Source: Candidatus Methylacidiphilales bacterium (lineage in GTDB: Bacteria; Verrucomicrobiota; Verrucomicrobiia; Methylacidiphilales; JAAUTS01). From it: 64,000 nt of DNA. How positions within the stretch are numbered: the first letter of the stretch is position 1; each line of letters starts with the position of its first letter. The stretch spans positions 1,477-65,476 of the forward strand of contig JBBSCO010000007.1 in assembly GCA_038250235.1 (NCBI GenBank). The letters run 5' to 3'. Below, in pieces: positions 22,514-39,183 of the stretch. The notes beneath the pieces are model-generated. The model did not search any database. It saw only the letters and a program-made list of their open reading frames with translations, and was not told where the DNA came from. The translations under genes and the position numbers were made by a program.

Positions 22514-22962
22514 CTAAAATAAGATCTGTGGGGCCTGGCCGGGGTGCCAAGGGTTTTGTTGAAAGGCTGATTTTTCCAGGGACAGCACTGTGTTTTTCCA
22601 GAGATTGCGGACTGGATTCAGGTTTAGTTGGAGGTGGGGGCTTGCGTAAGGGGTAAGATTGTTCAGGGCAAGTTGGAGGAGTCGTCCGGCGGGGGCGAGG
22701 CGTGCGCCATGGACGCGGTGGGTGGGGAATTGGTGATGGAGTTTAAGGTGGACGAAAGCTCCTGCTCCCTGGATCAGACCTTTATAAAAAGAGTAGTTGG
22801 GGCCTTGTTTGCCCTCGGCCAACCAAAGTTCCTCCAAAACATCGTGGGCTTCGTAGTAGTCCTGGCGGTTGAAACATGCAAAATAGCCGAGGTAGTGGGG
22901 ATCCAGGCCCGGGCGTTGAAGGTTCCGGATCAGTCCGGCGATTTTGGGCGATTTCTTGCTCA
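22514..22962 (-). CDS. DUF309-domain protein
   Basis: YFACFNRQDYYEAHDVLEELWL is the DUF309 signature. I place the start at the GTG at 22962-22960 (MSKKSPKIAG...). The track ORF start at 23131 would overlap the upstream cyclase gene by 130 nt. Confidence 0.6.
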
Positions 22963-23001
22963 CAGATAAGGTTCCAGCCGGGATGAGGGTGTGGCATCCA
23001 C

Positions 23002-25218
23002 CTATTTGGTATTCAAGGTCATAACGCCATCCCAATCCACAGGGGGGGGATTTTGCTGAAAGCCACGGGATTCGGAAAGGTATTCCAGTGTGCAGAAATC
23101 GTCCGGTCTGGCGGCGGCGCATTGTTCCCACAGTCTGGTGGCTTTGTCAAAATCCCGCAGGAGAAAGGCGTCGAAGGCTTCTTCATAGCCGCTGACCCAG
23201 CTATCTTCCCACTGGCGAAGAGGGTTGTCGAAGGCTTCGAGGACTTCGTAGGCGCGAACCGGTTTGGTTTTGCCTTTCACTACGAGCACACCAACGGAAC
23301 GGATCAGAAACTCGCCTTTGAGGAATTGCTGTAGGGTTTCGCCCACCACAAAATCGGTGTGGAATTGTTTGGTTACGCCTTCTAGGCGGGACGCGAGGTT
23401 GACGGCGTCGCCGATGACGGTGAATTCGCGGCGTTGGCTGGCGCCGATGTTACCGACGAGGACGTTACCGTGGTTGAGACCGATGCCGATATTGAAGGCG
23501 GGGCGGTTTTCCGACTTCCAGCGTTCATTAAGAAGGGCAAGTTGCTCGCGCATGGCGAGGGAACAGCGCACGGCGTTGCGGGCGTCGTCGCGCGGGGAGC
23601 TGGAAACAACGTCGCCCCAGACTGCCATGACGGCGTCGCCGATGTATTTATGGAGGGTGCCCTGATAGCGGTTAACGCATTCGACCATTTGTTCGAAGTA
23701 TTCATTGAGCTGGACAACCAGTTCTTCTTCGCCGAGGGCTTCGCTGATGGAGGTGAAGCCGCGGATGTCGGAGAAGAGGATGGTGACGGGTTTGCGGACG
23801 CCGCCGAGCTTGATGTTTTCCTCGCTGTTGAGGAGCTGGTTCATGACGCTGGGGGCGATGTAGGAGGCGAAGACGCTTTTGATCTGCTGTTTGGAGCGGA
23901 GTTCATCGATCCAGCTGATGAAGAAGGAGCCGAGGTGGAGGATGAGGAATCCGAGGGAGGGCCAGACGAGAGGGGTTAGGAGGTTGTGGTAGTTGAAGGC
24001 GTAAAGGCAGAAGCCGAAATAGAGGCCCAAGGTTATGAAGGGAACCGCCAGGGTGATACGGATGTTCTTTTTATGGAGGCCGATCAGGGTGATCCAGCAA
24101 AGCAGCAGAAAGCCCAAGGCCGTTGCGCCTACGGGAGCAACGCGCAGGTAGTCATTCTGGAGGATATTGTTCAGGGCAAAGAAATGTGTGAAGACAGGCG
24201 GGGAGGAGGAACTGATGGGGGTGGAGGCCAATTCCATCAGTCCGGAGACAGTGGCCCCCACAAGAATAATGCGGTCTTTGATCAAAGGGAACTCGGGCGG
24301 GAGTTCCTTGTTTTGTTGCTGCTTTTCGTAAAGGGCCTGAAGAGTTGAGGCGAAGGAGAAAGACGGGAATTCGAGGTTGGGACGATAATTCAGAAGGAGT
24401 TCGCCACGTTCATTGATCGGAATGCGGATCTCCTTCTTTTCCGTAGGAAGAATCAGGGCTTTCCCCAGTTCAACACGAACAGCAGAAGGATCTATCTTGA
24501 GATGACGAAGCAGGATTTGGGTGACAAAAGAGGGGTAAATATCACGGCCAACCCGGATGATTAGGGGCATTTTTCGGCGAATGGAGTCAGATCCTACCGA
24601 AACTGTATCGGTAAAGCCGAAAAAGGACTCGTATCTAAGTAGGGCCAGGGGGGTAAGGGCCAGATTACTGTCCTCAATACCTGGAACAAGCTTGGGGTTT
24701 CCTTTAACTTGGGGAAGAGGCTGCGTTTTTCCAAAATCGATCGTGCCCGGCCGGTTTTGCGGTGACTGTCCGCTTTGGGCAAAGGCAGAGAGGACAACCT
24801 TTCCGTTTTTACGGAGGCTTTCCGCGAAGAATTTGTTGGCCTGCTCCTCCCTCACGCTCGCGGCCAGGAAGCGGTCACGTTTTTCTTCGCGGCGGTCTGT
24901 GAAGAGGATGTCGAAGGCGACCACAGAAGGTTGTTCTGGATCCAAAAGGTAAAGCAGGTCGCCATGGTAATTGCGGGGCCAGGGCCAGCCGCCGAAACGG
25001 TCGAGGGAGGCTTGGTCGATGTTGACCAGAAGGAGGGAAGGATCGACTTTGCTTCCCAAGGCGGGGCGGTTGTCAAAACGCCAATCAACGGTGATATTCT
25101 CGAGCCGTGCAATGAAGGCCTGCTCGTAAAAAAGGGCGTAAAGCGAGAGAGCGGCGAGAGGAGCCAACAGCCCGTAGCTGTTTTTCTTTAGGTATTTCAA
25201 GACTCGATTCAACTCCAT
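23002..25218 (-). CDS. Adenylate/guanylate cyclase with periplasmic CHASE2 sensor domain
   Basis: The 738-aa product has an N-terminal transmembrane helix and a roughly 330-aa extracytoplasmic region with CHASE2-like features. A cluster of transmembrane helices follows, then the class III cyclase motifs VTILFSDIRGFTSISE, KYIGDAVMAVWG and TVIGDAVNLASRLEG. Confidence 0.8.
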   Translation of the reverse strand: MELNRVLKYLKKNSYGLLAPLAALSLYALFYEQAFIARLENITVDWRFDNRPALGSKVDPSLLLVNIDQASLDRFGGWPWPRNYHGDLLYLLDPEQPSVVAFDILFTDRREEKRDRFLAASVREEQANKFFAESLRKNGKVVLSAFAQSGQSPQNRPGTIDFGKTQPLPQVKGNPKLVPGIEDSNLALTPLALLRYESFFGFTDTVSVGSDSIRRKMPLIIRVGRDIYPSFVTQILLRHLKIDPSAVRVELGKALILPTEKKEIRIPINERGELLLNYRPNLEFPSFSFASTLQALYEKQQQNKELPPEFPLIKDRIILVGATVSGLMELASTPISSSSPPVFTHFFALNNILQNDYLRVAPVGATALGFLLLCWITLIGLHKKNIRITLAVPFITLGLYFGFCLYAFNYHNLLTPLVWPSLGFLILHLGSFFISWIDELRSKQQIKSVFASYIAPSVMNQLLNSEENIKLGGVRKPVTILFSDIRGFTSISEALGEEELVVQLNEYFEQMVECVNRYQGTLHKYIGDAVMAVWGDVVSSSPRDDARNAVRCSLAMREQLALLNERWKSENRPAFNIGIGLNHGNVLVGNIGASQRREFTVIGDAVNLASRLEGVTKQFHTDFVVGETLQQFLKGEFLIRSVGVLVVKGKTKPVRAYEVLEAFDNPLRQWEDSWVSGYEEAFDAFLLRDFDKATRLWEQCAAARPDDFCTLEYLSESRGFQQNPPPVDWDGVMTLNTK

Positions 25219-25494
25219 ACACCCCTGAGTTACTCATAGGCTCTCAGATAATCAAGCACAAGACCTCGCCGGACATGCAAAAGACAGGTAAGGAAAGAGA
25301 GTATTTTACATAAAAATAGGTAATAAACTCTTAAAGGAAAGGACTTTTGTGGAAATCGGTCTGATAGGATCATCTTTGTGTATAAAGTCCTGTCTAATCA
25401 CCTCGACAAAAGTTCTAATTTCAGAGGAAATAGAAACTTCAGGGACGTGCTTTTTTATGGATCAACAAAGGCAGCGAAACTTCCCCCTAGTCCT
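25219..25494. promoter_or_regulatory. AT-rich divergent intergenic region between the CHASE2 cyclase gene and tpsA
   Basis: This 276-bp spacer is visibly more AT-rich than its flanks (for example TATTTTACATAAAAATAGGTAATAAACTC). It must hold the promoters of both divergent units. I can assign no specific boxes with confidence. Confidence 0.3.
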
Positions 25495-28400
25495 ATGAAA
25501 AAAGCAAACAGAACAGGAGAAAGATTGTTGCGTGCGGCTGTCGTGCTCTTGTTTGCCTGTATGGTCAATGCTCCCTTCGCCTTGAAAGCCAATCCCCAGG
25601 GTGAACAGGTTGTGGCAGGTTCGGCAACCTTTGACCGTTCCGCAGATCGATTGAACATTACCACTAGCAACCAGGTAATCATCAACTGGCAGGATTTTTC
25701 CGTAGGCCAGAACGAGACGACGCAGTTTATCCAGCCCGGCAGCAGTTCGGTGGCGGTCAACCGGGTGGTGACGGGCAATCCTTCCGCGATCTATGGCAAT
25801 CTGATCGGAAACGGGCAGATCATTCTCATCAACCCCAACGGTGTCATGGTGGGATCCGGTGGCAAGGTGGATACGGGAGGCTTTCTGGCTTCGACATTGG
25901 ACATGCCGAACGGCTCTTTTTTCAACGGCCAGGATTGGCGTTTCAGTGGAAATTCGGAAGCATCAATCATTAACAACGGTCAGATCCGGGCCCGGGCTGG
26001 TGATGTGATCATGATCGCCCGCCAAGTGGAGAATCACGGAAGACTCAGTGCTCCGGACGGCGTGGTCGCGTTGGGGGCAGGGGTGGAGGTTTTGGTTTCG
26101 CGCGCAGAAGACGCGGCCCGTCGTATTTATGTTCAGCCCAGTCAGGGACAGGGTGGGAGCAGTATCTGGAACACTGGTTCGGCGGAAGCAATCCAGGTGG
26201 AGTTCGAGGCAGCGGGCAGAAACCCCTTTGCCCTGGCCATCAACAATGAAGGGGTCATACGTGCCACGGGTAGCGTTCAGCGGGAAGGCAGGGTTTTTCT
26301 GGTTTCGAAGGGTGGAACGCTGCAGCACAGTGGCAGCATCTACGCCACGAACAAGGACGGTTCCGGTGGTTACGTCAAACTGATGGGCAAGCCGCAGCAC
26401 GATGTTTCCACGGTTCTTGTTTCCGGAACAATCGAAGCGAAAGGTAATTCACTGCTGGCTGGTGGGAGGTTGGAGATCCTGGGCGACCAGATTGCGCTGA
26501 CAAAAGGGGCTGCCATCACGGTCTCCGGCAAGAATGGCGGAACTGTTTTGGTGGGGGGTGATTACCAGGGAAAGAATCCCGACATCTATAACGCACAGAA
26601 AGTTTTTGTGGGTGAAGGCGTGACCATTTATGCCAATGCTCTGGAGAACGGTGACGGGGGTAAAGTTATTTTCTGGGCGGACGACTGGACGAAGTTTTAT
26701 GGTTATGTCGAAGCACGGGGTGGTGAATTGGCTGGAAATGGGGGTTTTGTGGAAGTTTCGGGGAAGCGCAGCCTTTCCTTTGATGGCGCAGTGGACTTGA
26801 GGGCGGCCTATGGAACGACCGGAACCCTGCTTTTGGATCCTGATAACATCATCATTGCCAATGCCGCTTCTTCCGTAGACGACGGCGAGTTGTCGGATCA
26901 GCAGATTTTCTTTGATGACGGGACGGGAACCTTTACCATTTCCAATACGGCACTGGTGGCCTCTTTGGCCACGGCTAACACACAGCTCCAGGCCAATATT
27001 AAAATCACGGTGAACGGGTCGGTGGTTTCGACGTCAGGGTTTTCTCTGACCCTGCAGGCGCAGCAGATCGAACTGGCGGCCGGTGTGAGCATTTCCCTGG
27101 GCACTGGCACTATTGTGATCGACGCCAATACTGGTGGAACTGCTACAGCCGACAATATTGACGCCTTTCTGATGAATACCGGTTCCCAGCTCGTGACCAG
27201 CTCAGGAAACATTACGGTCGCCTCGATTGGTTCAAGTGGCATTAACAGCCGGGCGATCCGTCTGGATGGTGCTACTATCAGCAGCGTGAGTGGGGCTATC
27301 AATCTCTCCGGCACGGCAGCCGGAACAAATGGGAATAGCCATGCCATCCAGATTCTGGGTGGTTCATCGATTACTTCGACAGGAGCTTCCACGATCGCCT
27401 TGACGGGCATAGGGAATGCCGGGGGGAGTGATGGGGTCCTTTCCGTGGCCGATGCAAACGTCATCGGAGGCCTCAGTGCTTCGGGCAACATCACGATCAC
27501 CACCAACAATTACAACGTGACCAATGCCACACTCCAATCCAGCGGCAATCTTGTCATCAAGGCGGATAGTGCAGCAACAAGCATCGGAGTCGCGGGCGGA
27601 GTCGGAACCCTGAGCATCAGCACAACAGAAATGGAAAAGATTCTCGATGGATTTGCTTCCATTACTTTTGGTGATGTTGTCTCAGGAACGGGCGCAGTGA
27701 CCGTCAATTCGTCCACCTTCACCGATTCCGTGACCTTCGCGGGCGGTGACATGGGTCTGGCAGCGGTGAATGCGGGAAGCAACAACCTGACTCTCCAATC
27801 CAACGCGGGGACGGTCACGCAGAGCGGGGTTCTTACGGCTTCCATGCTGACTTTGAACGGAGCAGGGGGAACCTTCACTCTAAACACCCAAAACAACAAC
27901 GTTACTAATCTAGCCGGTAACACGGGATCCATTACTTTCCGTGATGATAATGGATTCAGCACGGGAATTCTGGCCACGACCGAGAATATCACTCTGGAGA
28001 CCACGGAAAGCCTTATGTTGGGTGGGGCCATCACCAGCTCCAGCGGGGTTATTTCGCTTTCGACCAGTGGAATGGGCAAAAGCCTGACCCTGAGTTCGGG
28101 TGCCGACTTTGTTATGCTGGCCAACACTACAGGAACAGGTTCCATTAGTCAGTTAAACGGGGTTGCTACCAATACGGATTTCAGCGGTTTCGCCTCGATC
28201 AATGGCGGCGATGGTATCGATAGTTTGACTGGCACTGCGACGGGTCAAACCTGGGTGATCACGGCAGCAGACACGGGAACAATCGGTGGATTTGGCTTTG
28301 GTTCATTTGAAAATATCACTGGAGGTGCCGATGTTGACTTCTTTTCCTTCGCCGGAACAGGTTCGCTCAGTGGAACTTTGGCGGGCGGAGGTGGAAGCGA

Positions 28401-31400
28401 TACTTTAACCGGCAATTCAACCGCCAATAGCTGGTTGTTGACCGGTTCAGATGCGGGTTCTCTTAATAGCGTTGTTTTTTCCAGTATTGAAAATTTGACT
28501 GGCAACGTGCTGGCCGACAGCTTTACCTTGAGCGGCCCGGGTGTTTTGTCCGGATCGATTGATGGCGGGAACGGTGCGGATACGATCAGTTACCTGGGAT
28601 CGGGAAACCCCATCGATGTGCTGTTGAGTTCCGCACGGGCCGGAACGGTGACCAACTTGACTGACAGTTCCAGTTTTACTTTTAGCAACATCGAACAGAT
28701 CGACGGGGAAACCGGCAGGAGTAACAGTCTGACGCTGCAGAACGGGGGTGTGACGGTGACGATTGGTCAGGTGGACGGCGGGGACACAGGGGCGGGGGGC
28801 ATTACTTTCAGCTCATTTGATGCGATCACGGGCGGCGATGATAATGATATTTTCATCATCTCCAATACAGGAACCCTAACCGGGGCGCTGGACGGCGGGA
28901 ATGGCGAGGATACCCTGGATTACAGTTCCAACACTTTCGCGGTGACGGTGGATCTGGATTCGGGCGGAGCGACTCATGATTCCACCACGATCAGCTTTAG
29001 CAACATGGAGGCCCTGAGTGGCAACGGAACGGCCACAACGCTATTCCTGACTTCCAATGATGAGGTCGTTACGATTTCGTCCGCCGGCGCCGGGGATGTG
29101 GATGGTACGTTTACGTTCGATGGAGTGACTTCTCTGGATGGCAACGGGGGAGTGAATGAATTGGTCAATGGGACTTCCGGGGGTGTTACTTATAGGGTGA
29201 ATGGGGGTGATCTGGGGGAAATGACAGGACTGATTGACTTCAATGACTTTGGCACCCTGACCGGAAGCGGGTCCAACGACAGTTTTGTTTTGACAGATGG
29301 CGGCAGTCTTAGCGGGGCCATTGATGGTGCGGGGGGAAGCAACACGCTGAGTTACGTTTCCAGGACGGCTTCGGTGGCGGTGGATCTCGAGCAGGAGTCG
29401 GCCACGGACATTGCGGGAGGCTTTGCCAATATCGTGAGTTTCATTGGAGGCGGCGTGGCGGGAGACAACCTGGCTGGGGCGGATCTGGTCAACACTTGGA
29501 CATTGACCGGCGTTGGTAGAGGCACGGTTGATAGTGTAAATTTCGACGGATTTGAAGATCTGGTGGCGGGGAATGACGAGGATCTCTTCGTGATTGGTGT
29601 GGCAGCGGACTTTGCCTCCATCACGGGCAACGGAGGCAATACAAGGCTGGACTATTCAGGCAATACCTTGGGGGTGACCTTCGATCTGGACAGCGGCGAT
29701 GGGGCCCACGGTTCGATCACGATCAATACATCCGGCGTTACAGCCTTGTCAGGAAATGGATTGGATACAACCTTGATCCTGACGAGTTCAGACGAAATAG
29801 TAACTCTCACGGGTAGTGGAACAGGGGATGTGGACGGGAATCTTGAATTTGACGGGGTGACCCTGGTGGATGGAAATGGGGGTAGTGACGAACTGGTGAA
29901 CGACACGGGAGCCAGCCAGGTGTTTGCCATCGCGGATACGGATGAAGGTTCAATTACAGGCATTCTTTCCTACACGGGCTTCGGGAATCTGCGTGGAGAC
30001 GGGTCCGATACCCTGAGTTACTCGGGCTACACGGGAGGAGCAGTCACGGTGAATCTGGAGGATTTGACGGCGACGGCGCTCAGTGGGGAGTTTGATGGAA
30101 TGTCGGTGTTTGTAGGAAGTAGCGACAGCGGGGATACGTTGATTGGAGAGGATGCGGGTTTGGCTTGGATGATCAACGCGGCCAATGGAGGGTCTGCGGG
30201 AGCAACGACATTTACCTCTTTTGAAAACCTGACGGGTGGCAGTGGAACGGACGGGTTTAGCTTTACCAATCCAGGAAGCCTATCGGGATCACTGGATGGT
30301 GGAGCAGGAACCAATACCCTGACGGGAGATGCGGACGGTAATGCCTTCACGATAACGGGTGTTAATAGTGGAACCCTGACGGGTAAGATTACTGGTGGCT
30401 GGAGCGGTATCGGGAATCTGGTGGGAGGGGCAGCCGTGGACAGTTTTGCATTTGGAGGGGCAGGGGAGCTGACTGCGCTGGACGGAGCCGGTGGAAGCGA
30501 CACGTTAGCCGGGGATGATATAGCCAGAAATTTTTCCATCACTGGCATTAATGAGGGAACGCTGGCCGGATTGATCGGGGGAACCTGGTCTGCGATTGAA
30601 AGTCTGGCGGGAGGATCGAACAATGATTCGTTTGTGTTCAGCGATGGAGCGGCCTTATCTGGAACGATAGATGGGGGCGGCGGAGGCAACAACTTGGACT
30701 TCGGCACTTACACGATCGCGATCATTGTGAATCTACAGACAGGATCTGCCACGGGGACGGGAGGCTTCAGTAACATCGGAAGCTTCATGGGAGGGACGGC
30801 TTCGGATACCTTGACGGGAGCAGATACAGCAACGATCTGGGCCATCACGTCAAACAACTCCGGATCTGCGGGAAGCGTGAATTTCAGCTCATTTGAAAAT
30901 CTGACGGGAGGAAGTGGCAATGACAGTTTCGTCTTTTCAGATGGGATCGGCGTGAGTGGAACGGCCGATGGAGGCGGGGGAATTAACACTCTGGATTACA
31001 GTGCTTATTCAACAGCAGTCAGTGTGAACCTGCAAAGCCTGACGGCGACCGCTACGGGAGGATTCAGTAATATCGGAAGTTTAATTGGAGGAACGGTATT
31101 GGACACGCTCACCGGGGCGGATTTAACCAATAGCTGGAGTCTGACCGGACCCGGATCGGGAAGTGTGGGAGGCGTGAGCTTTAGCGGTTTTGAGTCACTG
31201 GTTGGCGGAAGCGCGACAGACAATTTTCAGTTTTCTAGCCCAGCGTCCTATACTTCGATTAATGGCGGACTGGGAAGTGACACAGCCGATTATTCCCTGT
31301 TGGCAGGACCGTTTTCGCTGATCGCGGGGGATCTGACAATGTTGATGGGGGCTTCCGCGTTTTCCAGTATTGAGTCCATAACCGGTTCGGCCTCCACAGC

Positions 31401-34400
31401 CAACTTGGTGAACGGACAGAATGTGGACACGACCTGGGATGTAAACGGGCTCAATGCCTTCACGGTGGCAGGCATCAACTACAATGGATTTGAAAACATC
31501 ACGGGTGGCAGCGCGGCGGACACCTTCAATTTTGAGACAGCAGGCTCGTTGACCGGTACGTTGAACGGCGGTTCCGGCGGGAACACCTTAAGTTATTCGG
31601 GCCGGTCAGCGTCAGTAAGCGTGAATCTGCAGACCGGGGTGGCGACAAGCATCGGCGGAACTTTCAGTAATATTGGTGATTTTGTGGGAGGTAATTATAC
31701 AGCGGACAGTTTGACCGGAGCGGATGTGACACAGACTTGGACGATTGACGGGTTGAACAGCGGCAACATCGGGGGGACGCTGACCTTTACGGGATTTGAA
31801 GGACTGACCGGAGGGAATCTGAACGATGTCTTTGCGATGGTGGACGGCGGCTCGATCGGAAGCATCGCTGGTGGAGGAGGAACGACCAACAGCTTGGACT
31901 ACAGTGCACGGACCGGGGCGGTGAGCGTTAACTTTGGAACAGGAGTAGCGACGGGAATCACGAACTTCAGCGGGATCAATACGTTGTTGGGTAATGCAGC
32001 GACCTCTCTGACGCTGAACGCGGGCAACGACAGTGTGCAGATCACAACGGCCAATGCCGGGAACGTGAACAGTGGACAGTTGACTTACAGTTCGGTGCAG
32101 ATACTGGACGGAGTGGGCGGAATTAATACCCTGATCGGACGCAACGTGGCCAACACCTTTGCGGTGACCGGGATGGATAGTGGAACGGTGGACGGAGTCG
32201 CTTTCAGTAATTTCGGGAACTTGACAGGAAATGCACTGGCGGATCAGTTCCAATTCCAGGTGGGAGGAATCTTAAGCGGTGCAATCGACGGTGCGGGGGG
32301 GACAAATGCCCTCCAAGGGGACGATGCCAACCGGAGTTGGACCATCAATGGGAACTCCACAGGATCTGTTAGTGTTTTGGTGGGATCATTTGCTTTCATT
32401 CAAAGTCTGGTGGGTGGCAATCTGGCAGATACGTTCATCGTGGCGGATAGTGGGGCGATGGCTTCCATCATTGGAGGTTCGGGATCGAACGCCTTGGATT
32501 ACAGCACCCGAACAGGTGTGGTGAGCGTGAGTTTTTTCGGAGGATCTGGCAGTGGCACAGGTGTGACGGCCTACAGCAATATCGGAGTGTTGACAGGTAA
32601 TACCTCAACCTCGCTGGCCCTGAATTCGGGCAACGACAGTGTGCAAATCACAGCGGCCAATGCGGGGAACGTTAACAGCGGGCAGTTGGTTTACAGTTCG
32701 GTGCAGACATTGGACGGAGTGGGCGGAATTAATACCCTGATCGGACGCAACGTGGCCAACACCTTTGCGGTGACCGGGATGGACAGTGGGACGGTGGACG
32801 GAGTCGCTTTCAGTAATTTCGGGAACCTGACAGGTAATGCGGCGGCGGATGTGTTCCAGTTACAGACGGGTGGCAGCCTTAGCGGAAATATCAATGGAGC
32901 AGCAGGTACGAATACGTTGACTTATGCGGGACGTGCGGCTGCGGTGAACGTAAACCTGCAGTCCGTGGTGGCAACGGACATTGCTGGAAGCTTCAGCACT
33001 ATTGGTGAATTTGCGGGCGGCAGCAATACGGGAGACAGCCTGACCGGAGTCAATGCGGTGCAGACATGGACGATCAATGGAGTGGACAGTGGCAACATTG
33101 GTGGAACGGTGACTTTTGCTTCCTTTGAAAATGTCAACGGTGGCTCGCAGGCTGATACTTTCACCTTCAGCGGCATTGGCTCGCTCGCTGGTTCTTTGAA
33201 TGCGGGTGCTGGAAATGATCTCATCAACCTTGGAGCCGCAGGTGTGACCGGAGGCAATGTTGATATGGGTGACGATGACGACACTCTGAACATGGGTAGC
33301 GGTGGAAGCATTACGGGAACGCTGACGGGAGGAACCGGAACGGACAATATCAGTTTTGCAGGTAGAAGTCCGCTCGTGACGGTGAATCTGGCTTTGGCTT
33401 CTGCCACCGACATACTGTTAGGGGCTGCATCCGGATTTACCAGTATAGAGAACATCACAGGGGGATCCAATGCGGCTGATCAACTGACGGGGGCCAATGT
33501 TATTGGACAAAGTTGGGTGATCAATGGAACCAACACTGGAACAGTCGGTGGACTGGCTTTCAGCTTCAGCAGCTTTGAAAATCTGACTGGCGGAACCCAG
33601 ACAGACAGCTTCACTTTTTCCGGTGCTGGTGCGCTCAGCGGCAATTTATCCGACCTGAATTCTGAAACGACTCTTTCCGGTGCAGTAGTGGCCGCTCGAA
33701 TCCAATTGGTGAATGTTCTGCTTGCCTCGAATGTCGTTCTTAATACATCTGCTGCAAATGGAATGATCCAAGTGAGTGCTGTGAACGGGAACGGCTTTAG
33801 TCTGGGTTTTTCGAGCGGAACGGGAACCAAAACAATTTCGGGTGCTGTCACCCTGTTGAGTGCTGCCGCCGGTCCGGCTTTGAGTTTGCAGGGCAGTGGG
33901 TTGACTACCTTCAGTAGCTCCGTGATCAGCACAATGGGAGGGATTGACGGGTCGGGGGCCGGCAATGTGAATTTTGGAGGGAATATAACCCTGGGTGATG
34001 GCAGCACTGGTTCCAACTTTGCCGGGTTGGTTACTTTCACTGCAGCCGGTGGGACGGCCTTCAGCGGCTTTGACGGGTTGATATTGAATGGAGGGCTTTC
34101 CTTGGGTGGCAATAGCAGCATTACTTCCAACGGTTCCACCCTATTAATGACGGCGTTGGACGGAAATGCCAACAGCCTGATTTTGAATGCGGGGACGGGA
34201 ATCCTGACGATCAGTGGTGCTGCCATCGATCTAAGCTCCCTGACGTCTACGGCCACGACCAGTAATCTTCAGATTGTCACAACGAGCGGTAATCAAAGCT
34301 ACACCGGGTCAGTGATTGGAATGGGACTGCTGACGGCGGACAACCTCACCTTACAGGGTGTGGGCAATGTTTCAGCCGGAGGCCTGACACGTCTACAGAC

Positions 34401-36531
34401 TTCAGTCAATTCTCTGCTCCTGGGCAAGTCATCGGGAAATGCTTTCATCCAAGAGGTCGATGGAATCAATCTGAGCGGAATCAACGTGGGTGTGGATGCG
34501 GGATTTTTGGATCTCCTTGTCAGTGCAGGTGACATGACGCAAACAGGATCTTTGGATCTGACGGGAGATGCGGTTCTGACCACGTCCGGAGGCTCGATCC
34601 GGCAAAGCGTAGGGGTTCTCAACTCAATCAACGCAACACTGGTTTCAGCCGGGGGTATCGGGACCCTTTTAGAGGCTTTTGATACCAGCACCACCGGTCT
34701 GGTCACTCTTGCCACATCAGGTATTGGTGCTGCAGGCGATATCAATTTGGCAGAAGCCAACGCACTTTCGACCTCCGCCTCGCGACTGCTGGTGACAACG
34801 GATGCCAGTAAACAGTCGGTTCGCCTGATTGCGGGCGGGGCTTCTTTTGCGATTACCCAGTCCTTCGGGAATACAACGGACGATCTGCTTCTATCCGCTG
34901 TCAACGGCTCGATTGTGATCACCAATCCTGCCGCAGTAGTCTCCGCCGATGTGTTGGCGTTGCAGTCAGGAGGGGCCAACGGAGACATCGGAACCCTGAC
35001 GAATCCCCTGCGCATCAATGCTGGCACGGTTCAATTTACTGCCACGGGAAACGGACAGGTGCAGATCCGTGAAGCCAACATGGTTACGATCACTGGAAGC
35101 AGTGTTTCCGGAAATATCCGCATTATTTCCAGTGATACACTAACGGTTGGCGGCAACATCAGCACCACCGGCAGTATTAGTCTGGAGACTCTGGGCAACA
35201 ATATCGAAGGGGTGACCGTTGGCACTCCCACCATCACGGCTAATTTTCTGAATATGGAAGCGCCGGGCTCGATTATTTTCAATAATCTGACCATCAATGC
35301 GGCAAGCGGTGTCAGTTTCAGCAACCTTGCTGCGCTTGGTAATCTTACGGTGGGAGGTAACTTTACCATGACGGCAGGAGGATCAATTTCGCAGATTGCG
35401 GGAACTTCCGTGAATGTCGGCGGTTTGTTTACGGTGAACGCAGTGGGACAATCCGTAGTTCTGGACCGGACGGGCAACCAATTTGGTCTGGTTCGCATCA
35501 ATGCCGCAAGTCTTGTCTTGAATGAATCAAACTCCACTCTTCTCGATCAGATTCAAGTAGCTGGTCTTTTGGATATCACCTCCGCAGGCTCCATCTCACA
35601 GGTCGCTCTTGCCGCGATCAGGGCCAGCAGTCTTCGTCTCAGTTCAGGCGGCACGATTTTGTTGAATAGTTTCACCAATGAGGTTGCTGTTTTGGGCGAT
35701 GTTGCCCGTGGTGGTTTTTTCCAGTTCTTCAACAGCACAGCTTTGGTCATAACCGGACTGATGAACACCGGGGACATCACATCTGAAATCGAGATCGTGA
35801 CCCAGAGCAATATGACAATTCAGAATGGCACCCAAATTCGCGTTGATGGCGGAACAAGCGAAATCATTCTGGCAAGTCGGAGCGGGCAGTTCCTTAATCA
35901 GAGTGTTACGAATCCCCTTCTTCTCGGAGCGGCAAACCGCTTCCTCATTTATAGCGGCACAGAAGCCCTGACAACACTGGGTTCGATCTCCGCAACCTAC
36001 ACTCAATTTGGATCCCCCTATGCCCAGCCCGGCCTTGGTTCCGGTAACGGATTGCTTCTCCGCGAAATACTGGGCGTTGGGCCTGTGGTGGTGCTGAATC
36101 CGAGCAACCCCGTAGGAGGAAGCGTTAATACGAACGTGGGGGATTTCGGGCTGCGTTCCATCGAGTTGGATTTTAACGCGTCACGTTTAGGCCGCTTTGG
36201 AGCAGGTGGCTTTGAACGACTTTCGGTGATCGGCGCCAATGGGGAAGGATCTCTGGGGGGATTGAGTCTGGAAGACATCATGAAAGTTCTGGAGAAGGAT
36301 ATTTCCAAGGAGGCCCGGGATGAGTTGATGGCTGCCTGGCAGTCGATGCAGGGCGAAGGGTTTGATCCGCGTGAGTCCATTCTGCCGGCGGGATTGGTTT
36401 ATCTGCAGGACTCTAAAGGGCGGGCCGTGGTTATTCTCCCCGGCCAGCTGATGGATTCCCTGGCACCGCTCCTGAATGACCAGGAACGTGCACGCCTGAG
36501 TTCCCTGCTGGCCGGACTGGGACAACCCTAA
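25495..36531 (+). CDS. Giant two-partner-secretion exoprotein (TpsA; filamentous-haemagglutinin-type, 3,678 aa)
   Basis: The ATG at 25495 gives the signal peptide MKKANRTGERLLRAAVVLLFACMVNAPFALKA. The TPS domain follows (QVVAGSATFD, NWQDFSVG, TQFIQP, VNRVTG, ILINPNGVMVG). Next comes GNGGFVEVSGK...GTLLLDPDNIII, then a long Gly/Thr/Ser/Asn-rich beta-helix-type repeat region. The track ORF starts at an upstream GTG (25378). Confidence 0.9.
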   Translation: MKKANRTGERLLRAAVVLLFACMVNAPFALKANPQGEQVVAGSATFDRSADRLNITTSNQVIINWQDFSVGQNETTQFIQPGSSSVAVNRVVTGNPSAIYGNLIGNGQIILINPNGVMVGSGGKVDTGGFLASTLDMPNGSFFNGQDWRFSGNSEASIINNGQIRARAGDVIMIARQVENHGRLSAPDGVVALGAGVEVLVSRAEDAARRIYVQPSQGQGGSSIWNTGSAEAIQVEFEAAGRNPFALAINNEGVIRATGSVQREGRVFLVSKGGTLQHSGSIYATNKDGSGGYVKLMGKPQHDVSTVLVSGTIEAKGNSLLAGGRLEILGDQIALTKGAAITVSGKNGGTVLVGGDYQGKNPDIYNAQKVFVGEGVTIYANALENGDGGKVIFWADDWTKFYGYVEARGGELAGNGGFVEVSGKRSLSFDGAVDLRAAYGTTGTLLLDPDNIIIANAASSVDDGELSDQQIFFDDGTGTFTISNTALVASLATANTQLQANIKITVNGSVVSTSGFSLTLQAQQIELAAGVSISLGTGTIVIDANTGGTATADNIDAFLMNTGSQLVTSSGNITVASIGSSGINSRAIRLDGATISSVSGAINLSGTAAGTNGNSHAIQILGGSSITSTGASTIALTGIGNAGGSDGVLSVADANVIGGLSASGNITITTNNYNVTNATLQSSGNLVIKADSAATSIGVAGGVGTLSISTTEMEKILDGFASITFGDVVSGTGAVTVNSSTFTDSVTFAGGDMGLAAVNAGSNNLTLQSNAGTVTQSGVLTASMLTLNGAGGTFTLNTQNNNVTNLAGNTGSITFRDDNGFSTGILATTENITLETTESLMLGGAITSSSGVISLSTSGMGKSLTLSSGADFVMLANTTGTGSISQLNGVATNTDFSGFASINGGDGIDSLTGTATGQTWVITAADTGTIGGFGFGSFENITGGADVDFFSFAGTGSLSGTLAGGGGSDTLTGNSTANSWLLTGSDAGSLNSVVFSSIENLTGNVLADSFTLSGPGVLSGSIDGGNGADTISYLGSGNPIDVLLSSARAGTVTNLTDSSSFTFSNIEQIDGETGRSNSLTLQNGGVTVTIGQVDGGDTGAGGITFSSFDAITGGDDNDIFIISNTGTLTGALDGGNGEDTLDYSSNTFAVTVDLDSGGATHDSTTISFSNMEALSGNGTATTLFLTSNDEVVTISSAGAGDVDGTFTFDGVTSLDGNGGVNELVNGTSGGVTYRVNGGDLGEMTGLIDFNDFGTLTGSGSNDSFVLTDGGSLSGAIDGAGGSNTLSYVSRTASVAVDLEQESATDIAGGFANIVSFIGGGVAGDNLAGADLVNTWTLTGVGRGTVDSVNFDGFEDLVAGNDEDLFVIGVAADFASITGNGGNTRLDYSGNTLGVTFDLDSGDGAHGSITINTSGVTALSGNGLDTTLILTSSDEIVTLTGSGTGDVDGNLEFDGVTLVDGNGGSDELVNDTGASQVFAIADTDEGSITGILSYTGFGNLRGDGSDTLSYSGYTGGAVTVNLEDLTATALSGEFDGMSVFVGSSDSGDTLIGEDAGLAWMINAANGGSAGATTFTSFENLTGGSGTDGFSFTNPGSLSGSLDGGAGTNTLTGDADGNAFTITGVNSGTLTGKITGGWSGIGNLVGGAAVDSFAFGGAGELTALDGAGGSDTLAGDDIARNFSITGINEGTLAGLIGGTWSAIESLAGGSNNDSFVFSDGAALSGTIDGGGGGNNLDFGTYTIAIIVNLQTGSATGTGGFSNIGSFMGGTASDTLTGADTATIWAITSNNSGSAGSVNFSSFENLTGGSGNDSFVFSDGIGVSGTADGGGGINTLDYSAYSTAVSVNLQSLTATATGGFSNIGSLIGGTVLDTLTGADLTNSWSLTGPGSGSVGGVSFSGFESLVGGSATDNFQFSSPASYTSINGGLGSDTADYSLLAGPFSLIAGDLTMLMGASAFSSIESITGSASTANLVNGQNVDTTWDVNGLNAFTVAGINYNGFENITGGSAADTFNFETAGSLTGTLNGGSGGNTLSYSGRSASVSVNLQTGVATSIGGTFSNIGDFVGGNYTADSLTGADVTQTWTIDGLNSGNIGGTLTFTGFEGLTGGNLNDVFAMVDGGSIGSIAGGGGTTNSLDYSARTGAVSVNFGTGVATGITNFSGINTLLGNAATSLTLNAGNDSVQITTANAGNVNSGQLTYSSVQILDGVGGINTLIGRNVANTFAVTGMDSGTVDGVAFSNFGNLTGNALADQFQFQVGGILSGAIDGAGGTNALQGDDANRSWTINGNSTGSVSVLVGSFAFIQSLVGGNLADTFIVADSGAMASIIGGSGSNALDYSTRTGVVSVSFFGGSGSGTGVTAYSNIGVLTGNTSTSLALNSGNDSVQITAANAGNVNSGQLVYSSVQTLDGVGGINTLIGRNVANTFAVTGMDSGTVDGVAFSNFGNLTGNAAADVFQLQTGGSLSGNINGAAGTNTLTYAGRAAAVNVNLQSVVATDIAGSFSTIGEFAGGSNTGDSLTGVNAVQTWTINGVDSGNIGGTVTFASFENVNGGSQADTFTFSGIGSLAGSLNAGAGNDLINLGAAGVTGGNVDMGDDDDTLNMGSGGSITGTLTGGTGTDNISFAGRSPLVTVNLALASATDILLGAASGFTSIENITGGSNAADQLTGANVIGQSWVINGTNTGTVGGLAFSFSSFENLTGGTQTDSFTFSGAGALSGNLSDLNSETTLSGAVVAARIQLVNVLLASNVVLNTSAANGMIQVSAVNGNGFSLGFSSGTGTKTISGAVTLLSAAAGPALSLQGSGLTTFSSSVISTMGGIDGSGAGNVNFGGNITLGDGSTGSNFAGLVTFTAAGGTAFSGFDGLILNGGLSLGGNSSITSNGSTLLMTALDGNANSLILNAGTGILTISGAAIDLSSLTSTATTSNLQIVTTSGNQSYTGSVIGMGLLTADNLTLQGVGNVSAGGLTRLQTSVNSLLLGKSSGNAFIQEVDGINLSGINVGVDAGFLDLLVSAGDMTQTGSLDLTGDAVLTTSGGSIRQSVGVLNSINATLVSAGGIGTLLEAFDTSTTGLVTLATSGIGAAGDINLAEANALSTSASRLLVTTDASKQSVRLIAGGASFAITQSFGNTTDDLLLSAVNGSIVITNPAAVVSADVLALQSGGANGDIGTLTNPLRINAGTVQFTATGNGQVQIREANMVTITGSSVSGNIRIISSDTLTVGGNISTTGSISLETLGNNIEGVTVGTPTITANFLNMEAPGSIIFNNLTINAASGVSFSNLAALGNLTVGGNFTMTAGGSISQIAGTSVNVGGLFTVNAVGQSVVLDRTGNQFGLVRINAASLVLNESNSTLLDQIQVAGLLDITSAGSISQVALAAIRASSLRLSSGGTILLNSFTNEVAVLGDVARGGFFQFFNSTALVITGLMNTGDITSEIEIVTQSNMTIQNGTQIRVDGGTSEIILASRSGQFLNQSVTNPLLLGAANRFLIYSGTEALTTLGSISATYTQFGSPYAQPGLGSGNGLLLREILGVGPVVVLNPSNPVGGSVNTNVGDFGLRSIELDFNASRLGRFGAGGFERLSVIGANGEGSLGGLSLEDIMKVLEKDISKEARDELMAAWQSMQGEGFDPRESILPAGLVYLQDSKGRAVVILPGQLMDSLAPLLNDQERARLSSLLAGLGQP
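28180..33660 (+). repeat. Coding repeat array inside tpsA: about 100-aa units containing GGxGxD/N-T-L and F-x-N-[IL]-x-x-[LI]-T-G-G motifs
   Basis: Recurrent strings include GGGGSDTLTG, GGNGADTISY, GGNGEDTLDYS, GAGGSNTLSY, GGAGTNTLTG and GGGGINTLDYS. They alternate with FENITGG, IENLTGN, FENLTGGSG, FESLVGGSA and W.I.G...G. The units diverge at the DNA level except for the 606-bp duplication at 32.0-32.8 kb. Confidence 0.8.
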
Positions 36532-36634
36532 ATCTGTTTTGACAGTGAGACTCCTGACCGCAAAGCTCGTCGCACTCACTGCCATGGAAGAAGGTGTTAC
36601 CACAGAACCGTTTATTGTTGGCATCTGCAATCGG

Positions 36635-38404
36635 ATGTTAACAAGATCCGTACAATCAATAGTTTTTGTTTTGTTGGCATTCGCACTTCTCCCGTCGCTC
36701 CCCGGCCAGGCCACACAAAGCGGAGCCGATGTAATTCCGCGCTTTGAAAGTATCGCTCCAAAAACCCCAGAACCGGAAGAAAAGCCGGTGCAACTTCCGG
36801 AAAAGCCCAAGGAAGCACCCGGGGAAGATGATGTGCTGATTGAGTCGGTGGACGGGTTTTATTTCACTTCCAGCAAAGAAAAGATAGAGGTCAAAGGACG
36901 AAAGGATGTGAAGGGTATCCGGGTGGAGGATGTTGAAGCTCTCAAGAATCCTGAATTTCAGGCCCTTATGGCCAAGTATCTTAACAAATCGGTCAGTATA
37001 AAGACATTGAAGGAAATGGTGCGCGAACTGGTGGAATTTTACCGTGGGAAAGACCAACCCGTGGTGGATGTTATCATTCCGGAGCAGGAAATCACCTCCG
37101 GTGTGGTGCAGATTCTGGTGGTTGAAGGAAAAGTGGGTCTGGTCAAAGCAGAAGGGAGCCAATGGTTCGATTCGAAGATACTGACTTCCAAAATTCGATT
37201 ACAACACGGGGATCGGATCAGGGCCTCCCGTTTGATCAAGGACATTGAACTACTCAATACCAACACCTTCCGCGAGGTGGACGTGGCCTTTACTCCGGGA
37301 GCCATGGAGGGGGAAACCGATGTGATTCTTAAAACCAAGGATCGTTTTCCGGTCCGTTTTTATACCGGCTATGATGATACCGGAAACGATATTACGGGGG
37401 AAGAGCGGCTCCTGGCTGGTTTCAACTGGGGCAATGCTTTTTTTGCGGATCATTTGCTCAGCTATCAGTTCACCAGTAGCCCGGATTTCCATACTTTGAC
37501 TGCCCATTCCCTGACTTATTCCCTTCCTTTTTTTCGCGATGATCAGATGACCTTTTACGCGGCCATGTCTGAGGTTTCCACGGTTACGGTTCCGCTGGTC
37601 AACAACACCTTTCAGGAAGCTGAGAACTATCTGGCAGGCTATTCCTACCGGATGCCGCTTCCGGGTATCGACAAAGTATTCAGTAACAACATCACAACAC
37701 GATTTGATGCCCGCCGTTCCGCCAGCGATTTATTACTGGGAAACATACCGGTTACACAGGAGCTGACGGATACTTTCCAATGGGCCGTCGCTTATGACCT
37801 TGCAATAAACGATGCATGGGGCGTGACCCAGCTCAAACTGGAAATGGTGGGCAGTCCGGGGGGTATCACCGGAAGAAACGATGATGCCGCCTATGAAAAC
37901 AGCCGGAGGTTCGCCGATGCGCGTTATACCATCTATAAACTTGAGGCCAGGCGGCAAACCCGGCTTCCTTTTGATTTTTCATTGGTCACAGCCTTTACCG
38001 GCCAGCGTTCCGATAGCAATCTGCTCAGCAACGAACAAATGAACATCGGGGGTTACAACACTGTTCGTGGCTACACGGAAAATGAAGTGCGCGGTGATGA
38101 AGGTTATTTCACTAATATCGAATTGAGGACGCCGTCCGTGAGTCTGGGCGAGTTGTTCGGGCATCCCTCCTTCAAAGACGGCCTTCAGTTCCTGGGATTC
38201 TGGGATTATGGCCAGGTGGGGAATCTTGTGCTGCTTCCGGCCGAAAATCCCAATGCTGAATTGTCCTCGGCGGGCTTTGGACTCCGTTACTATGTGGATC
38301 GTTATTTCACTCTGCGGGCCGATTACGGGTTCCAGCTTTTGGACAGCACCTTCAACAACCGCTTTAACTCTCGCCTTCACCTGGGAATTGTCGTCAGCTA
38401 TTAA
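36635..38404 (+). CDS. TpsB transporter (ShlB/FhaC/HecB-family outer-membrane secretion/activation protein)
   Basis: The ATG at 36635 gives the signal peptide MLTRSVQSIVFVLLAFALLPSLPGQA. The ShlB-type POTRA region is VVEGKVGLVKAEGSQWFDSKIL...LLNTNTFREVDV...DVILKTKDRFPVRFYTGYDDTGN. An Omp85-like barrel ends in an aromatic residue (..LHLGIVVSY). Confidence 0.85.
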   Translation: MLTRSVQSIVFVLLAFALLPSLPGQATQSGADVIPRFESIAPKTPEPEEKPVQLPEKPKEAPGEDDVLIESVDGFYFTSSKEKIEVKGRKDVKGIRVEDVEALKNPEFQALMAKYLNKSVSIKTLKEMVRELVEFYRGKDQPVVDVIIPEQEITSGVVQILVVEGKVGLVKAEGSQWFDSKILTSKIRLQHGDRIRASRLIKDIELLNTNTFREVDVAFTPGAMEGETDVILKTKDRFPVRFYTGYDDTGNDITGEERLLAGFNWGNAFFADHLLSYQFTSSPDFHTLTAHSLTYSLPFFRDDQMTFYAAMSEVSTVTVPLVNNTFQEAENYLAGYSYRMPLPGIDKVFSNNITTRFDARRSASDLLLGNIPVTQELTDTFQWAVAYDLAINDAWGVTQLKLEMVGSPGGITGRNDDAAYENSRRFADARYTIYKLEARRQTRLPFDFSLVTAFTGQRSDSNLLSNEQMNIGGYNTVRGYTENEVRGDEGYFTNIELRTPSVSLGELFGHPSFKDGLQFLGFWDYGQVGNLVLLPAENPNAELSSAGFGLRYYVDRYFTLRADYGFQLLDSTFNNRFNSRLHLGIVVSY

Positions 38405-38415
38405 GGAGTAAAATA

Positions 38416-39183
38416 ATGAAAGCACTGCCTCTTTCGGGATTAGTGGTTCGAGCAACCTTCCGGGCCACCGTTCTTTGGGCTGCTGGCCGCGTGGCTCGCT
38501 TGAGTCGTATCAGTTCAGATTGGGGCCCGCGCTCGCGCCTCGTCACCCGCCCAAACTCCTGTCGGCCAACCCATCATACCTTGGCGCTTGGACCCCTAGC
38601 AGTATTTGTATTTATTGTGGGGGCAGAACAACCCCTCATGGCGCAGAGCAAGCCCTTGAGTGCCGTTGTCGTTTCGGTTTCCGGCAACGTAAAGCTCCAA
38701 CGCCCTGGAACAACAACCCGCATGGATATTTCCAGCGGAACACTTGTTCCGGCCGGTGCCGAGCTTTTCAGCAACGCCAATGCGGAGGCAAGTCTTGGTA
38801 TTTCCCCCGGCCTGGCTCTGACTCTAAAAGATGTCACGCATCTCAAAATTGTGGAGGCCAGTGAAAGCGTGCGTTCCGACGGAGTGATTCAACGGCAGGC
38901 GGTGATTGAAGTGATGGAAGGGCGCGTGGTGGTTCTGTTGCCTGAAAAACAGAATCAGGTTTTTGATTTAAAAATCAAAACACCGCAGGGAACAATCAAG
39001 CCCCGCGGAACGTTCTATGCCCTCATGGTAAAAGAAGGACAAAGTTTTCTGGCGGTTAGTGAGGGTAGGGTAGGGCTGGAACAGTTTATTCCTGTGACAG
39101 AGGAGGATCTGGAACAAGCAGTGGCACCGGCTGAACCCAAACGCGACTACGGCTCGGTTACAACGACCTCACCCCGCAGTTGA
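38416..39183 (+). CDS. Membrane-anchored FecR-like domain protein
   Basis: An AAGGAG sequence lies 8 nt upstream of the ATG, and the gap after tpsB is 11 nt. The protein has an Arg-rich N-terminal tail and one transmembrane helix (LALGPLAVFVFIVGA). A FecR-type beta-sandwich pattern follows (ASLGISPGLALTLKDVTHLKI ... VMEGRVVV ... KIKTPQGTIKPRGTFYALMV ... VSEGRVGL). Confidence 0.6.
   Translation: MKALPLSGLVVRATFRATVLWAAGRVARLSRISSDWGPRSRLVTRPNSCRPTHHTLALGPLAVFVFIVGAEQPLMAQSKPLSAVVVSVSGNVKLQRPGTTTRMDISSGTLVPAGAELFSNANAEASLGISPGLALTLKDVTHLKIVEASESVRSDGVIQRQAVIEVMEGRVVVLLPEKQNQVFDLKIKTPQGTIKPRGTFYALMVKEGQSFLAVSEGRVGLEQFIPVTEEDLEQAVAPAEPKRDYGSVTTTSPRS

Follow-up and report, generated by a model that had tools for sequence, protein, structure and literature searches.

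The 64,000-nucleotide stretch analyzed here (the window) comes from a Candidatus Methylacidiphilales bacterium and carries a block of four genes. A gene for a CHASE2-class III adenylyl cyclase lies on the minus strand. Divergent from it are the genes for a giant two-partner secretion (TPS) exoprotein (tpsA), an Omp85-type transporter (tpsB) and a protein with a FecR-type domain (fecR-like). The features of the block are collected in Table 1. A first-pass annotation, made from the letters alone, had placed these four genes, the AT-rich 276-bp divergent spacer and an 11-nt tpsB/fecR-like junction with an AAGGAG ribosome-binding site; genes, coordinates, spacer and junction were all borne out. 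The GC content of the spacer is 39.9%, compared with 53.5% for the window, and the spacer presumably carries the promoters of both transcription units. Promoter-like matches in the spacer occurred at chance frequency. A search for a motif common to the divergent spacers of six lineages, such as an operator or CRP-like site, found none.

Table 1. Position and basis of assignment of the features of the four-gene block
Feature	Position in the window	Strand	Basis
CHASE2-class III adenylyl cyclase, 738 aa	23002-25218	minus	Pfam, transmembrane (TM) scan, AlphaFold2 (AF2) model, alignment
Divergent spacer, 276 bp	25219-25494	none	base composition
tpsA exoprotein, 3,678 aa	25495-36531	plus	Pfam by pieces, repeat analysis, structural-database sequence matches
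TpsA C-terminal ~110 aa	36199-36528	plus	alignment of eight orthologous C-termini
tpsB, 589-aa Omp85-type transporter	36635-38404	plus	Pfam, CdiB 6WIM match, orthologue alignment
fecR-like gene	38416-39183	plus	Pfam FecR, alignments, AF2 model and Foldseek
fecR-like in-frame insert, 156 nt	38422-38577	plus	missing from other orthologues
Mature FecR-type domain, ~180 aa	38641-39180	plus	AF2 model, alignments
FecR-like C-terminal tail YG-x-TTTSPR(S/G)	39148-39180	plus	alignment, pLDDT
Terminator-like hairpin and T-run, overlapping the fecR-like stop codon	39176-39194	plus	terminator scan

The three plus-strand genes follow one another closely. In the window tpsA and tpsB are separated by 103 nt. 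The tpsB stop codon occupies positions 38402-38404, and the AAGGAG motif lies at 38403-38408, 7 nt 5' of the fecR-like ATG. Over seven lineages the gaps were -4 to 184 nt between tpsA and tpsB and 3-51 nt between tpsB and fecR-like, which fits the earlier reading of the three genes as one operon. The terminator-like hairpin is a possible operon end; the number of such sites in the region was not above that expected by chance.

In the cyclase, Pfam assigned CHASE2 (PF05226, E=1.7e-44) to residues 24-379 (nucleotides 24082-25149) and Guanylate_cyc (PF00211, E=2.4e-23) to residues 477-652 (nucleotides 23263-23790). The TM scan and the AF2 model (pLDDT 82.6) gave the order N-terminal TM segment, periplasmic CHASE2 domain, three TM helices (residues ~358-435), cyclase domain and TPR-like helical tail. 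PF05226, the TM scan and the AF2 helices together give the protein the architecture of a CHASE2 receptor. The catalytic site is intact. The metal-binding residues D484 and D528, the substrate-binding residues K524 and T600 and the transition-state residues N607 and R611 were invariant in an alignment of 27 orthologues. All six aligned residue for residue with Pseudomonas aeruginosa CyaB (3R5G, E=1e-37), where K524 and T600 fall on the motifs DKFVGD and YTIIG. Loss of catalytic residues, a possibility that the first-pass annotation had singled out for checking, is therefore not the case here. The Foldseek comparison of the model with 3R5G gave a TMt of 0.85; with the whole model as query, Foldseek returned cyclase-domain matches only, none of which bore on the CHASE2 fold. 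A Lys/Thr substrate pair is the signature of class IIIb adenylyl cyclases, which are ATP specific. Because Lys524 and Thr600 form this pair, the product of the enzyme is predicted to be cyclic AMP (cAMP). Of the cAMP/cGMP output proposed earlier, the cAMP part is thus retained and the cGMP part is not.

The CHASE2 domain has one feature of its own. A 13-residue insertion with the consensus EKRDRFLA-SVR--QAN lies in a helical hairpin of CHASE2 (cyclase residues ~107-138, nucleotides 24805-24900) and was found only in the clade of cyclases linked to TPS genes. It was modelled at low confidence (pLDDT 57-59) and is a candidate for a clade-specific docking surface. At the 3' end of the cyclase gene, a DUF309 open reading frame (ORF; 22514-23131, minus strand) overlaps the cyclase by ~130 nt when read from its GTG start. 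DUF309 is fused to a cyclase C-terminus in P0064, an NCBI protein from a metagenome-assembled genome (MAG) labelled Blastochloris sp., which is 92% identical to the window; P0064 probably stems from a mis-binned or frameshifted contig of the same verrucomicrobial lineage as the window.

The giant plus-strand ORF spans positions 25378-36531 (a 3,717-aa translation). The ATG at 25495 was preferred as the start of tpsA: from there the protein begins with a canonical signal peptide, MKKANRTGERLLRAAVVLLFACMVNAPFALKA (residues 1-32), in alignment with the start of the orthologue at locus L009. The signal peptide is followed by a TPS domain at residues 54-282 (nucleotides 25654-26340), which matched PF05860 (E=1.6e-26, with the N-terminal 400 residues scanned alone) and TIGR01901 (E=1.6e-20). 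The motif NPNGV is present in the TpsA sequence. The nearest solved relatives of the TPS domain are EtpA (7e-51), HMW1 and HxuA. When all 3,717 residues of the translation were given to Pfam hmmscan at once, no family matched; this is a filter artefact, and long low-complexity proteins of this kind need to be scanned piecewise. TpsA contains a single Cys. Beyond the TPS domain its sequence is Gly/Ser/Thr/Asn-rich and of beta-helix type, with DUF5649 repeats. Degenerate repeats of ~60, 100 and 200-244 residues with RTX-like GGxGxDxUx motifs occupy residues ~900-2750 (nucleotides 28192-33744). They are visible at the protein level only; Tandem Repeats Finder detected no tandem repeats in the tpsA DNA. 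The two metagenome contigs L174 (2269-9873) and L175 (1027-9873) encode an identical cyclase (P0023) and TpsA proteins of 2,534 and 2,948 aa, respectively, a length difference that points to repeat-number polymorphism of TpsA between populations.

The last ~110 residues of TpsA, which share the motif LPxGLxYxExxxGxxVV, are conserved in every verrucomicrobial orthologue (eight C-termini aligned). This segment is a candidate periplasmic or regulatory domain. The C-terminal 300 residues had no significant match among PDB sequences. A CdiA-type polymorphic toxin, as in contact-dependent inhibition, was ruled out: the C-terminus is conserved, there is no VENN motif and no Pfam toxin family matched. 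The CdiBAI gene layout was excluded further, since tpsA is followed directly by tpsB and not by an immunity gene. TpsB has a signal peptide and matched ShlB (PF03865, 9.4e-25) and POTRA_2 (PF08479, 6.2e-14) in Pfam, and CdiB (6WIM) at E=7e-12. A TPS domain in TpsA and an adjoining TpsB with POTRA and ShlB-barrel domains make this a two-partner secretion (type Vb) system, in which TpsB is predicted to export TpsA. We infer a role of TpsA in adhesion.

The third gene of the putative operon encodes a protein with a Pfam FecR match (PF04773, E=2.9e-7). Its orthologues are ~200 residues long, with a cleavable signal peptide of ~25 residues (MK...AQ|SKPL), a mature part of ~180 residues and no membrane anchor. 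In the copy of the window the sole hydrophobic stretch is the core of the signal peptide, positioned after a 52-residue lineage-specific insert. The product had been described at first as a membrane protein with an inner-membrane anchor; this view had to be abandoned, and the FecR-like protein is, judging from its targeting signal, a soluble periplasmic protein. The insert directly follows the ATG-AAA of the gene, has a GC content of 62.8% and adds 52 Arg-rich residues to the n-region of the signal peptide. It was present only in the window and at L094 and L095 and missing from all other orthologues. No second copy of it was found in the window or at any retrieved locus.

The AF2 model of the mature FecR-like protein is all-beta (pLDDT 81). 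Foldseek matched it best to periplasmic domains of the FecR type, namely the Parabacteroides anti-sigma factor 4M0H/4M0N and the PupR CCSSD (6OVK), and to an adhesin anchoring domain (5IX9). The last is a retention domain for "cell surface anchoring" from an RTX adhesin (with a TMt of 0.72 and a root mean square deviation of 2.0 over 64 columns), and a weak match to the LapA retention module was obtained with NCBIfam (E=0.002). An identity as anti-sigma factor was ruled out, as the protein has no anti-sigma domain, no TM anchor and no extracytoplasmic function (ECF) sigma partner; neither an ECF sigma gene nor a TonB-dependent transducer was found beside the orthologues. The protein ends in the tail YG-x-TTTSPR(S/G), which is predicted to be disordered (pLDDT <50) and is invariant down to 36% identity. 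The tail was found in P0134-P0138, L009 and L097 and is missing from other FecR partners of CHASE2 cyclases, and it defines a TPS-linked FecR-like subfamily. Profile matches that ran through the tail amounted to about eight 50%-identity clusters among 1.84 billion representatives, and five new full-length TPS-linked members all end in TTT(S/T)SPRG. The subfamily is thus small.

The block is conserved outside this genome. The first-pass annotation had made its proposal of a four-gene module depend on such conservation. A divergent tpsA accompanied the cyclase without exception in the orthologues at 56% (L009, from a Ca. Methylacidiphilales MAG), 54, 53, 50 and 45% identity, so that the gene was present in all six sampled Verrucomicrobiota lineages of the cyclase clade (45-100% identity). 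The orthologues at 45-56% identity carry Verrucomicrobiota or Ca. Methylacidiphilales names; a microbial-mat metagenome contig was 99% identical to the window over TpsB. The full four-gene set was seen at L009 and L174, where the contig extent allows. In a distance tree the six TPS-linked cyclases formed a single clade, and the verrucomicrobial cyclases outside it (P0033, P0058, L015, L024) had no TPS genes. TPS genes accompanied the cyclase in 6/6 members of the clade compared with 1/82 others (Fisher p=1.3e-8), and a FecR-like gene stood 3-51 nt after tpsB in 10/10 lineages of the TpsB clade compared with 0/76 distant TpsB loci (Fisher p=2.8e-13); the conserved lineages share ancestry, and both p-values therefore overstate their independence.

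The reshuffled flanks are a stronger argument than the p-values. On the far side of the cyclase the neighbouring gene varies by lineage (DUF309, DAO, VWA, DUF2071, Caroten_synth or Ion_trans). The genes 3' of fecR-like vary as well (DUF456, a sulfatase, a TPR protein or the amine-oxidase-like gene that the window also has). All FecR-like homologues found (37-98% identity) directly follow tpsB and a large upstream ORF. A metagenome scan for TpsB yielded 80 loci, and a FecR-like gene was found downstream only at TpsB identities of at least 48%; the 76 loci at 41% identity or less gave no FecR or CHASE2 match. Because the arrangement is conserved across lineages, it is more than a chance neighbourhood.

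The same four parts were also found in a Limnobacter MAG (L043). There tpsB, tpsA, fecR and a CHASE2 cyclase gene, all confirmed with Pfam, share a strand and are spaced by 7, -4 and 28 nt. The Limnobacter TpsA has 1,918 aa and a TPS domain, and the FecR protein has 512 aa and two FecR domains. The cyclase is phylogenetically distant from the verrucomicrobial clade, and the four parts were therefore assembled independently. Some cyanobacterial genomes had been named in the first-pass annotation as possible carriers of such a neighbourhood; the conserved examples found here come from Verrucomicrobiota and this one Limnobacter MAG, with no cyanobacterial locus among those retrieved. At another locus, L014 (8012-16633), a TpsB-like gene lies 27 nt from a CHASE2 cyclase gene in divergent orientation with no TpsA or FecR gene nearby, and the cyclase is followed by a protein of 1,449 aa that has BON as its N-terminal domain.

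The association of FecR proteins with CHASE2 cyclases is widespread. The cross-phylum background consisted of 80 CHASE2 cyclase loci from a GTDB scan (the matches listed, L014-L093), a set separate from the closest orthologues of the window cyclase. Among these, the ORF just upstream of the cyclase matched FecR more often than any other Pfam family (16/74), and ~20 FecR genes directly adjacent to CHASE2 cyclases were found with an iterated hidden Markov model. Next in frequency came FHA (with Yop-YscD_cpl), at 8/74; ShlB occurred once. FHA proteins may thus be a second recurrent type of partner, on the cytoplasmic side. The C-terminal modules of the other FecR partners are varied and include TbpB-like, FHbp-like and Big_2 domains. 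A FecR protein genetically linked to a CHASE2 cyclase was found in the window and at L009, L174 and L043. Together with the precedent of NsrA and CyaK described below, the association backs the link from the FecR-like protein to CHASE2 that had been suggested from the sequence.

For the FecR-CHASE2 pair, the earlier description of the module as having no assigned function was overstated, since the pair has already been noted in Burkholderiales, Campylobacterota and Sinorhizobium meliloti (PMC5192318, PMC9239204, PMC5498481). In Burkholderiales and P. aeruginosa, a LysM-FecR protein is paired with a CHASE2 histidine kinase (PMC5192318), and in Campylobacterota the gene cluster of a CHASE2 cyclase includes a phosphodiesterase, a TPR protein and a protein with a FecR domain (PMC9239204). 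S. meliloti needs the CHASE2 cyclase CyaD1 for its cAMP/Clr system, and SMc02177, a target of Clr, has a FecR domain (PMC5498481). CyaD1 without its CHASE2 domain is constitutive, and CHASE2 is therefore a regulatory input domain (PMC5498481). The most informative case is NsrA, an outer membrane protein that CyaK, a CHASE2 cyclase, requires in order to perceive its signal; the two relay an extracellular, protein-type signal to cAMP (PMC7529298, PMC13001267). In S. meliloti pSymB, nsrA lies immediately upstream of cyaK (L181, 5219-8821). Pfam located a FecR domain at residues 66-160 of NsrA (E=2.3e-15) and TPR repeats at residues 378-587, ahead of the published beta-barrel at residues 600-1200. 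NsrA-CyaK is thus an experimental prototype for signal transfer to a CHASE2 cyclase from a partner with a FecR domain.

A further cluster was seen on plasmid p1 of Shinella sp. H4-D48 (L182, 4924-17934), where the genes for a TPR/outer-membrane-protein-like protein, an 849-aa FecR-domain protein and a CHASE2 cyclase lie on one strand. The cluster also contains a gene for a cyclic-nucleotide-binding protein and ABC transporter genes for NHLP-type bacteriocin export. It is another FecR-CHASE2 cyclase pair set in an export system.

In the window the block is flanked by housekeeping genes of an ordinary chromosomal kind (LpxA, LpxC-FabZ, Psd, CDP-alcohol phosphatidyltransferase and MqnA-type). Among the genes between 13.5 and 45.2 kb, no sigma factor, including any of the ECF type, and no TonB-dependent transducer, cyclic-nucleotide receptor or mobile element was found. 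The DUF6600 protein encoded at 21521-22423 was considered as a hidden FecR relative and ruled out (hhalign probability 0.8%). Elsewhere in the window, Rfam gave a gathering-level match to the Vibrio antisense RNA V_AS9 (56618-56705, plus strand, 55.9 bits), antisense within an ORF on the minus strand (55609-56835); in this organism the match is probably spurious.

Taken as one unit, the four genes could couple type Vb secretion to a FecR/CHASE2 cyclase pair, with the state of the TPS system passed through the FecR-like protein and CHASE2 to cAMP. We assign this reading a probability of roughly 45%. TpsB would carry the repeat-rich 3,678-aa TpsA to the cell surface, and the FecR-like protein, produced together with TpsB and soluble in the periplasm, would serve as adaptor. 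It would read the TPS state through the POTRA domains of TpsB, through the still-periplasmic C-terminal domain of TpsA, or through both. The adaptor might sense export or stalling, an engaged TpsA filament, or a TpsA C-terminal domain present in the periplasm. The FecR-like protein would then pass this information on to CHASE2, the periplasmic domain of the cyclase in the inner membrane, and so alter cAMP synthesis. The logic would be that of NsrA-CyaK, but with the outer-membrane and surface part supplied in trans as a whole TPS system. The FecR-like tail and the 13-residue CHASE2 insertion are both confined to TPS-linked clades, a distribution that fits co-adapted contacts. We infer the contacts among the proteins, as well as the direction of the signal from surface or secretion state to cAMP.

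Several observations weigh against this coupling. The fecR-like gene is 13 kb from the cyclase gene and in the tps operon, but in most other lineages FecR is directly beside CHASE2; because of this location, the FecR-like protein could serve TpsA and TpsB instead of the cyclase. A cAMP receptor was not found in the block or its flanks. The Foldseek backing of the FecR fold is moderate, with TM scores of 0.36-0.41 and E values of 0.06-0.17 at probabilities of 0.99-1.0. The common descent of the conserved lineages, noted above for the p-values, counts here as well. In S. meliloti, the FecR-domain protein SMc02177 is dispensable for perception of the plant signal (PMC5498481).

The last finding would fit if the FecR-like protein were purely a TPS accessory, that is, a periplasmic chaperone, plug or retention partner for TpsA/TpsB that makes no contact with the cyclase, the latter being only a conserved neighbour. 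The position of fecR-like in the tps operon, 3-51 nt after tpsB, and the resemblance to the 5IX9 and LapA retention modules agree with such a role. It is nevertheless improbable in our judgment. Across phyla, the association of FecR domains with CHASE2 proteins is strong and specific, none of the 76 other TpsB loci has a FecR gene, and wherever the surroundings are visible (window, L009, L174, L043) a FecR-like gene with tpsB occurs only with a linked CHASE2 cyclase. The characterised partner NsrA also uses a FecR domain. That the linkage is inherited synteny without functional meaning we regard as very improbable. The verrucomicrobial examples all descend from one ancestor and the lineages are not independent, yet the outer flanks were reshuffled in each lineage while the block stayed intact down to 45% protein identity, and the same four parts recur in another order in the distant Limnobacter genome.

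Control could also run in the reverse direction: the CHASE2 cyclase, perhaps with the FecR-like protein as periplasmic sensor partner, would detect an unrelated cue from the envelope or the environment, and cAMP would regulate tpsA-tpsB-fecR transcription through a CRP/Clr-type regulator encoded outside the block. A divergent regulator/target layout was kept in six lineages, the spacer has the high AT content typical of promoter regions, and in S. meliloti cAMP-Clr governs genes of its own system including the FecR-domain gene smc02177 (PMC5498481). Against this, the six intergenic regions share no operator-like motif, no cyclic-nucleotide-binding protein is encoded in or near the block, and the Limnobacter genes are all on one strand and thus have no divergent promoter. 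Neither the linkage of tpsB to fecR-like in 10/10 lineages nor the TPS-clade-specific tail is explained by reverse control, and we consider it unlikely. It can coexist with signalling from the TPS system to the cyclase as a feedback loop.

Extended beyond this block, the proposal would be that CHASE2 domains are generally fed by periplasmic FecR partners and not by small ligands. Here the partner would signal whether a giant TPS adhesin is secreted or engaged, or what its mechanical state is, so that surface contact is converted to cAMP via TpsA/TpsB, the FecR-like protein and CHASE2. This generalization is speculative, and we think it rather doubtful. CHASE2 is listed among the common extracytoplasmic sensor domains and has no known ligand (PMC5192318). 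With a FecR domain in NsrA, FecR as the commonest neighbour and a minimal FecR-only protein in the present block, CHASE2 sensing becomes a concrete question, namely whether FecR binds CHASE2. Two-partner secretion is usually described as needing two proteins only. The conserved four-gene unit suggests a so far undescribed link of a surface adhesin to second-messenger signalling. As a conserved TPS system that comes with its own second-messenger enzyme and a small adaptor, it is a genetically simple setting in which to ask whether the cytoplasm is informed of adhesin export or engagement. If the relay to CHASE2 is real, it would be a bacterial "outside-in" adhesion signal across both membranes. 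If instead control runs in reverse, the block would be a clear case of a cAMP-controlled TPS adhesin in the Verrucomicrobiota, a phylum with little experimental signalling biology.

As a secretion system, the block resembles FhaB/FhaC, EtpA/EtpB and HMW1A/B, with a signal peptide and TPS domain in TpsA, POTRA and ShlB-barrel domains in TpsB, and adjacent genes. The known accessory genes of TPS systems encode glycosyltransferases (EtpC, HMW1C), immunity proteins (CdiI) or proteases. In the two-partner secretion literature searched, no TPS system was found that has a gene for a FecR-domain protein as its third member or a CHASE2 cyclase of its own, and no paper in the literature searched linked CHASE2 to haemagglutinin-type or two-partner secretion genes. 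The conserved C-terminus of TpsA is reminiscent of the C-terminal prodomain found in FhaB, a segment whose regulated degradation is functionally important (PMC4542190, PMC8263021), but has no detectable sequence similarity to solved proteins.

With FecIRA and PupIRB the block shares the PF04773-type beta fold and the principle of signalling from the outer to the inner membrane through a periplasmic FecR domain. In contrast to these systems, the FecR-like protein lacks a cytoplasmic anti-sigma domain, a TM anchor and an STN-like subdomain, there is no ECF sigma gene or TonB-dependent transducer, and the output would be cAMP instead of sigma-factor release. In P. aeruginosa, VreI and VreR control the neighbouring pdtA/pdtB genes. 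Unlike the FecR-like protein of the window, VreR of this system (PUMA3, VreA-VreI-VreR) is a membrane-bound anti-sigma factor with an ECF sigma, and no CHASE2 protein or cyclase takes part. PUMA3, as cell-surface signalling with a FecR-type regulator, has been discussed alongside two-partner secretion (PMC2729926).

The FecR-CHASE2 clusters of Burkholderiales/P. aeruginosa and Campylobacterota differ from the block in that TPS genes are missing. The FecR proteins of these clusters have LysM or other modules in addition, their genes lie beside the CHASE2 gene, and the output may be a histidine kinase. The closest counterpart is NsrA-CyaK, with CyaD1/CyaD2, in the receptor adenylate-cyclase signalling of S. 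meliloti. The cyclases have the same inner-membrane CHASE2-class III architecture, CyaK being ~26% identical over 83% of the query, and NsrA-CyaK likewise combines a cyclase-linked partner bearing a periplasmic FecR domain with an outer-membrane component. NsrA fuses FecR, TPR and beta-barrel in one 1,200-aa protein encoded directly upstream of the cyclase, whereas in the window the FecR-like protein consists of FecR only (~180 aa), the barrel is the separate POTRA-bearing TpsB, and a secreted 3,678-aa TpsA is added. The tps and fecR-like genes of the window are also divergent from the cyclase gene, with no Clr-type receptor nearby. The clade of the window is the extreme case: the FecR protein is cut down to a bare domain with a tail, and a complete TPS system serves as the module for the outer membrane and the surface. 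The pairing of FecR with CHASE2 was known already; what is new here is best classed as a variant in which an NsrA-CyaK-type relay of FecR and CHASE2 is joined to two-partner secretion.

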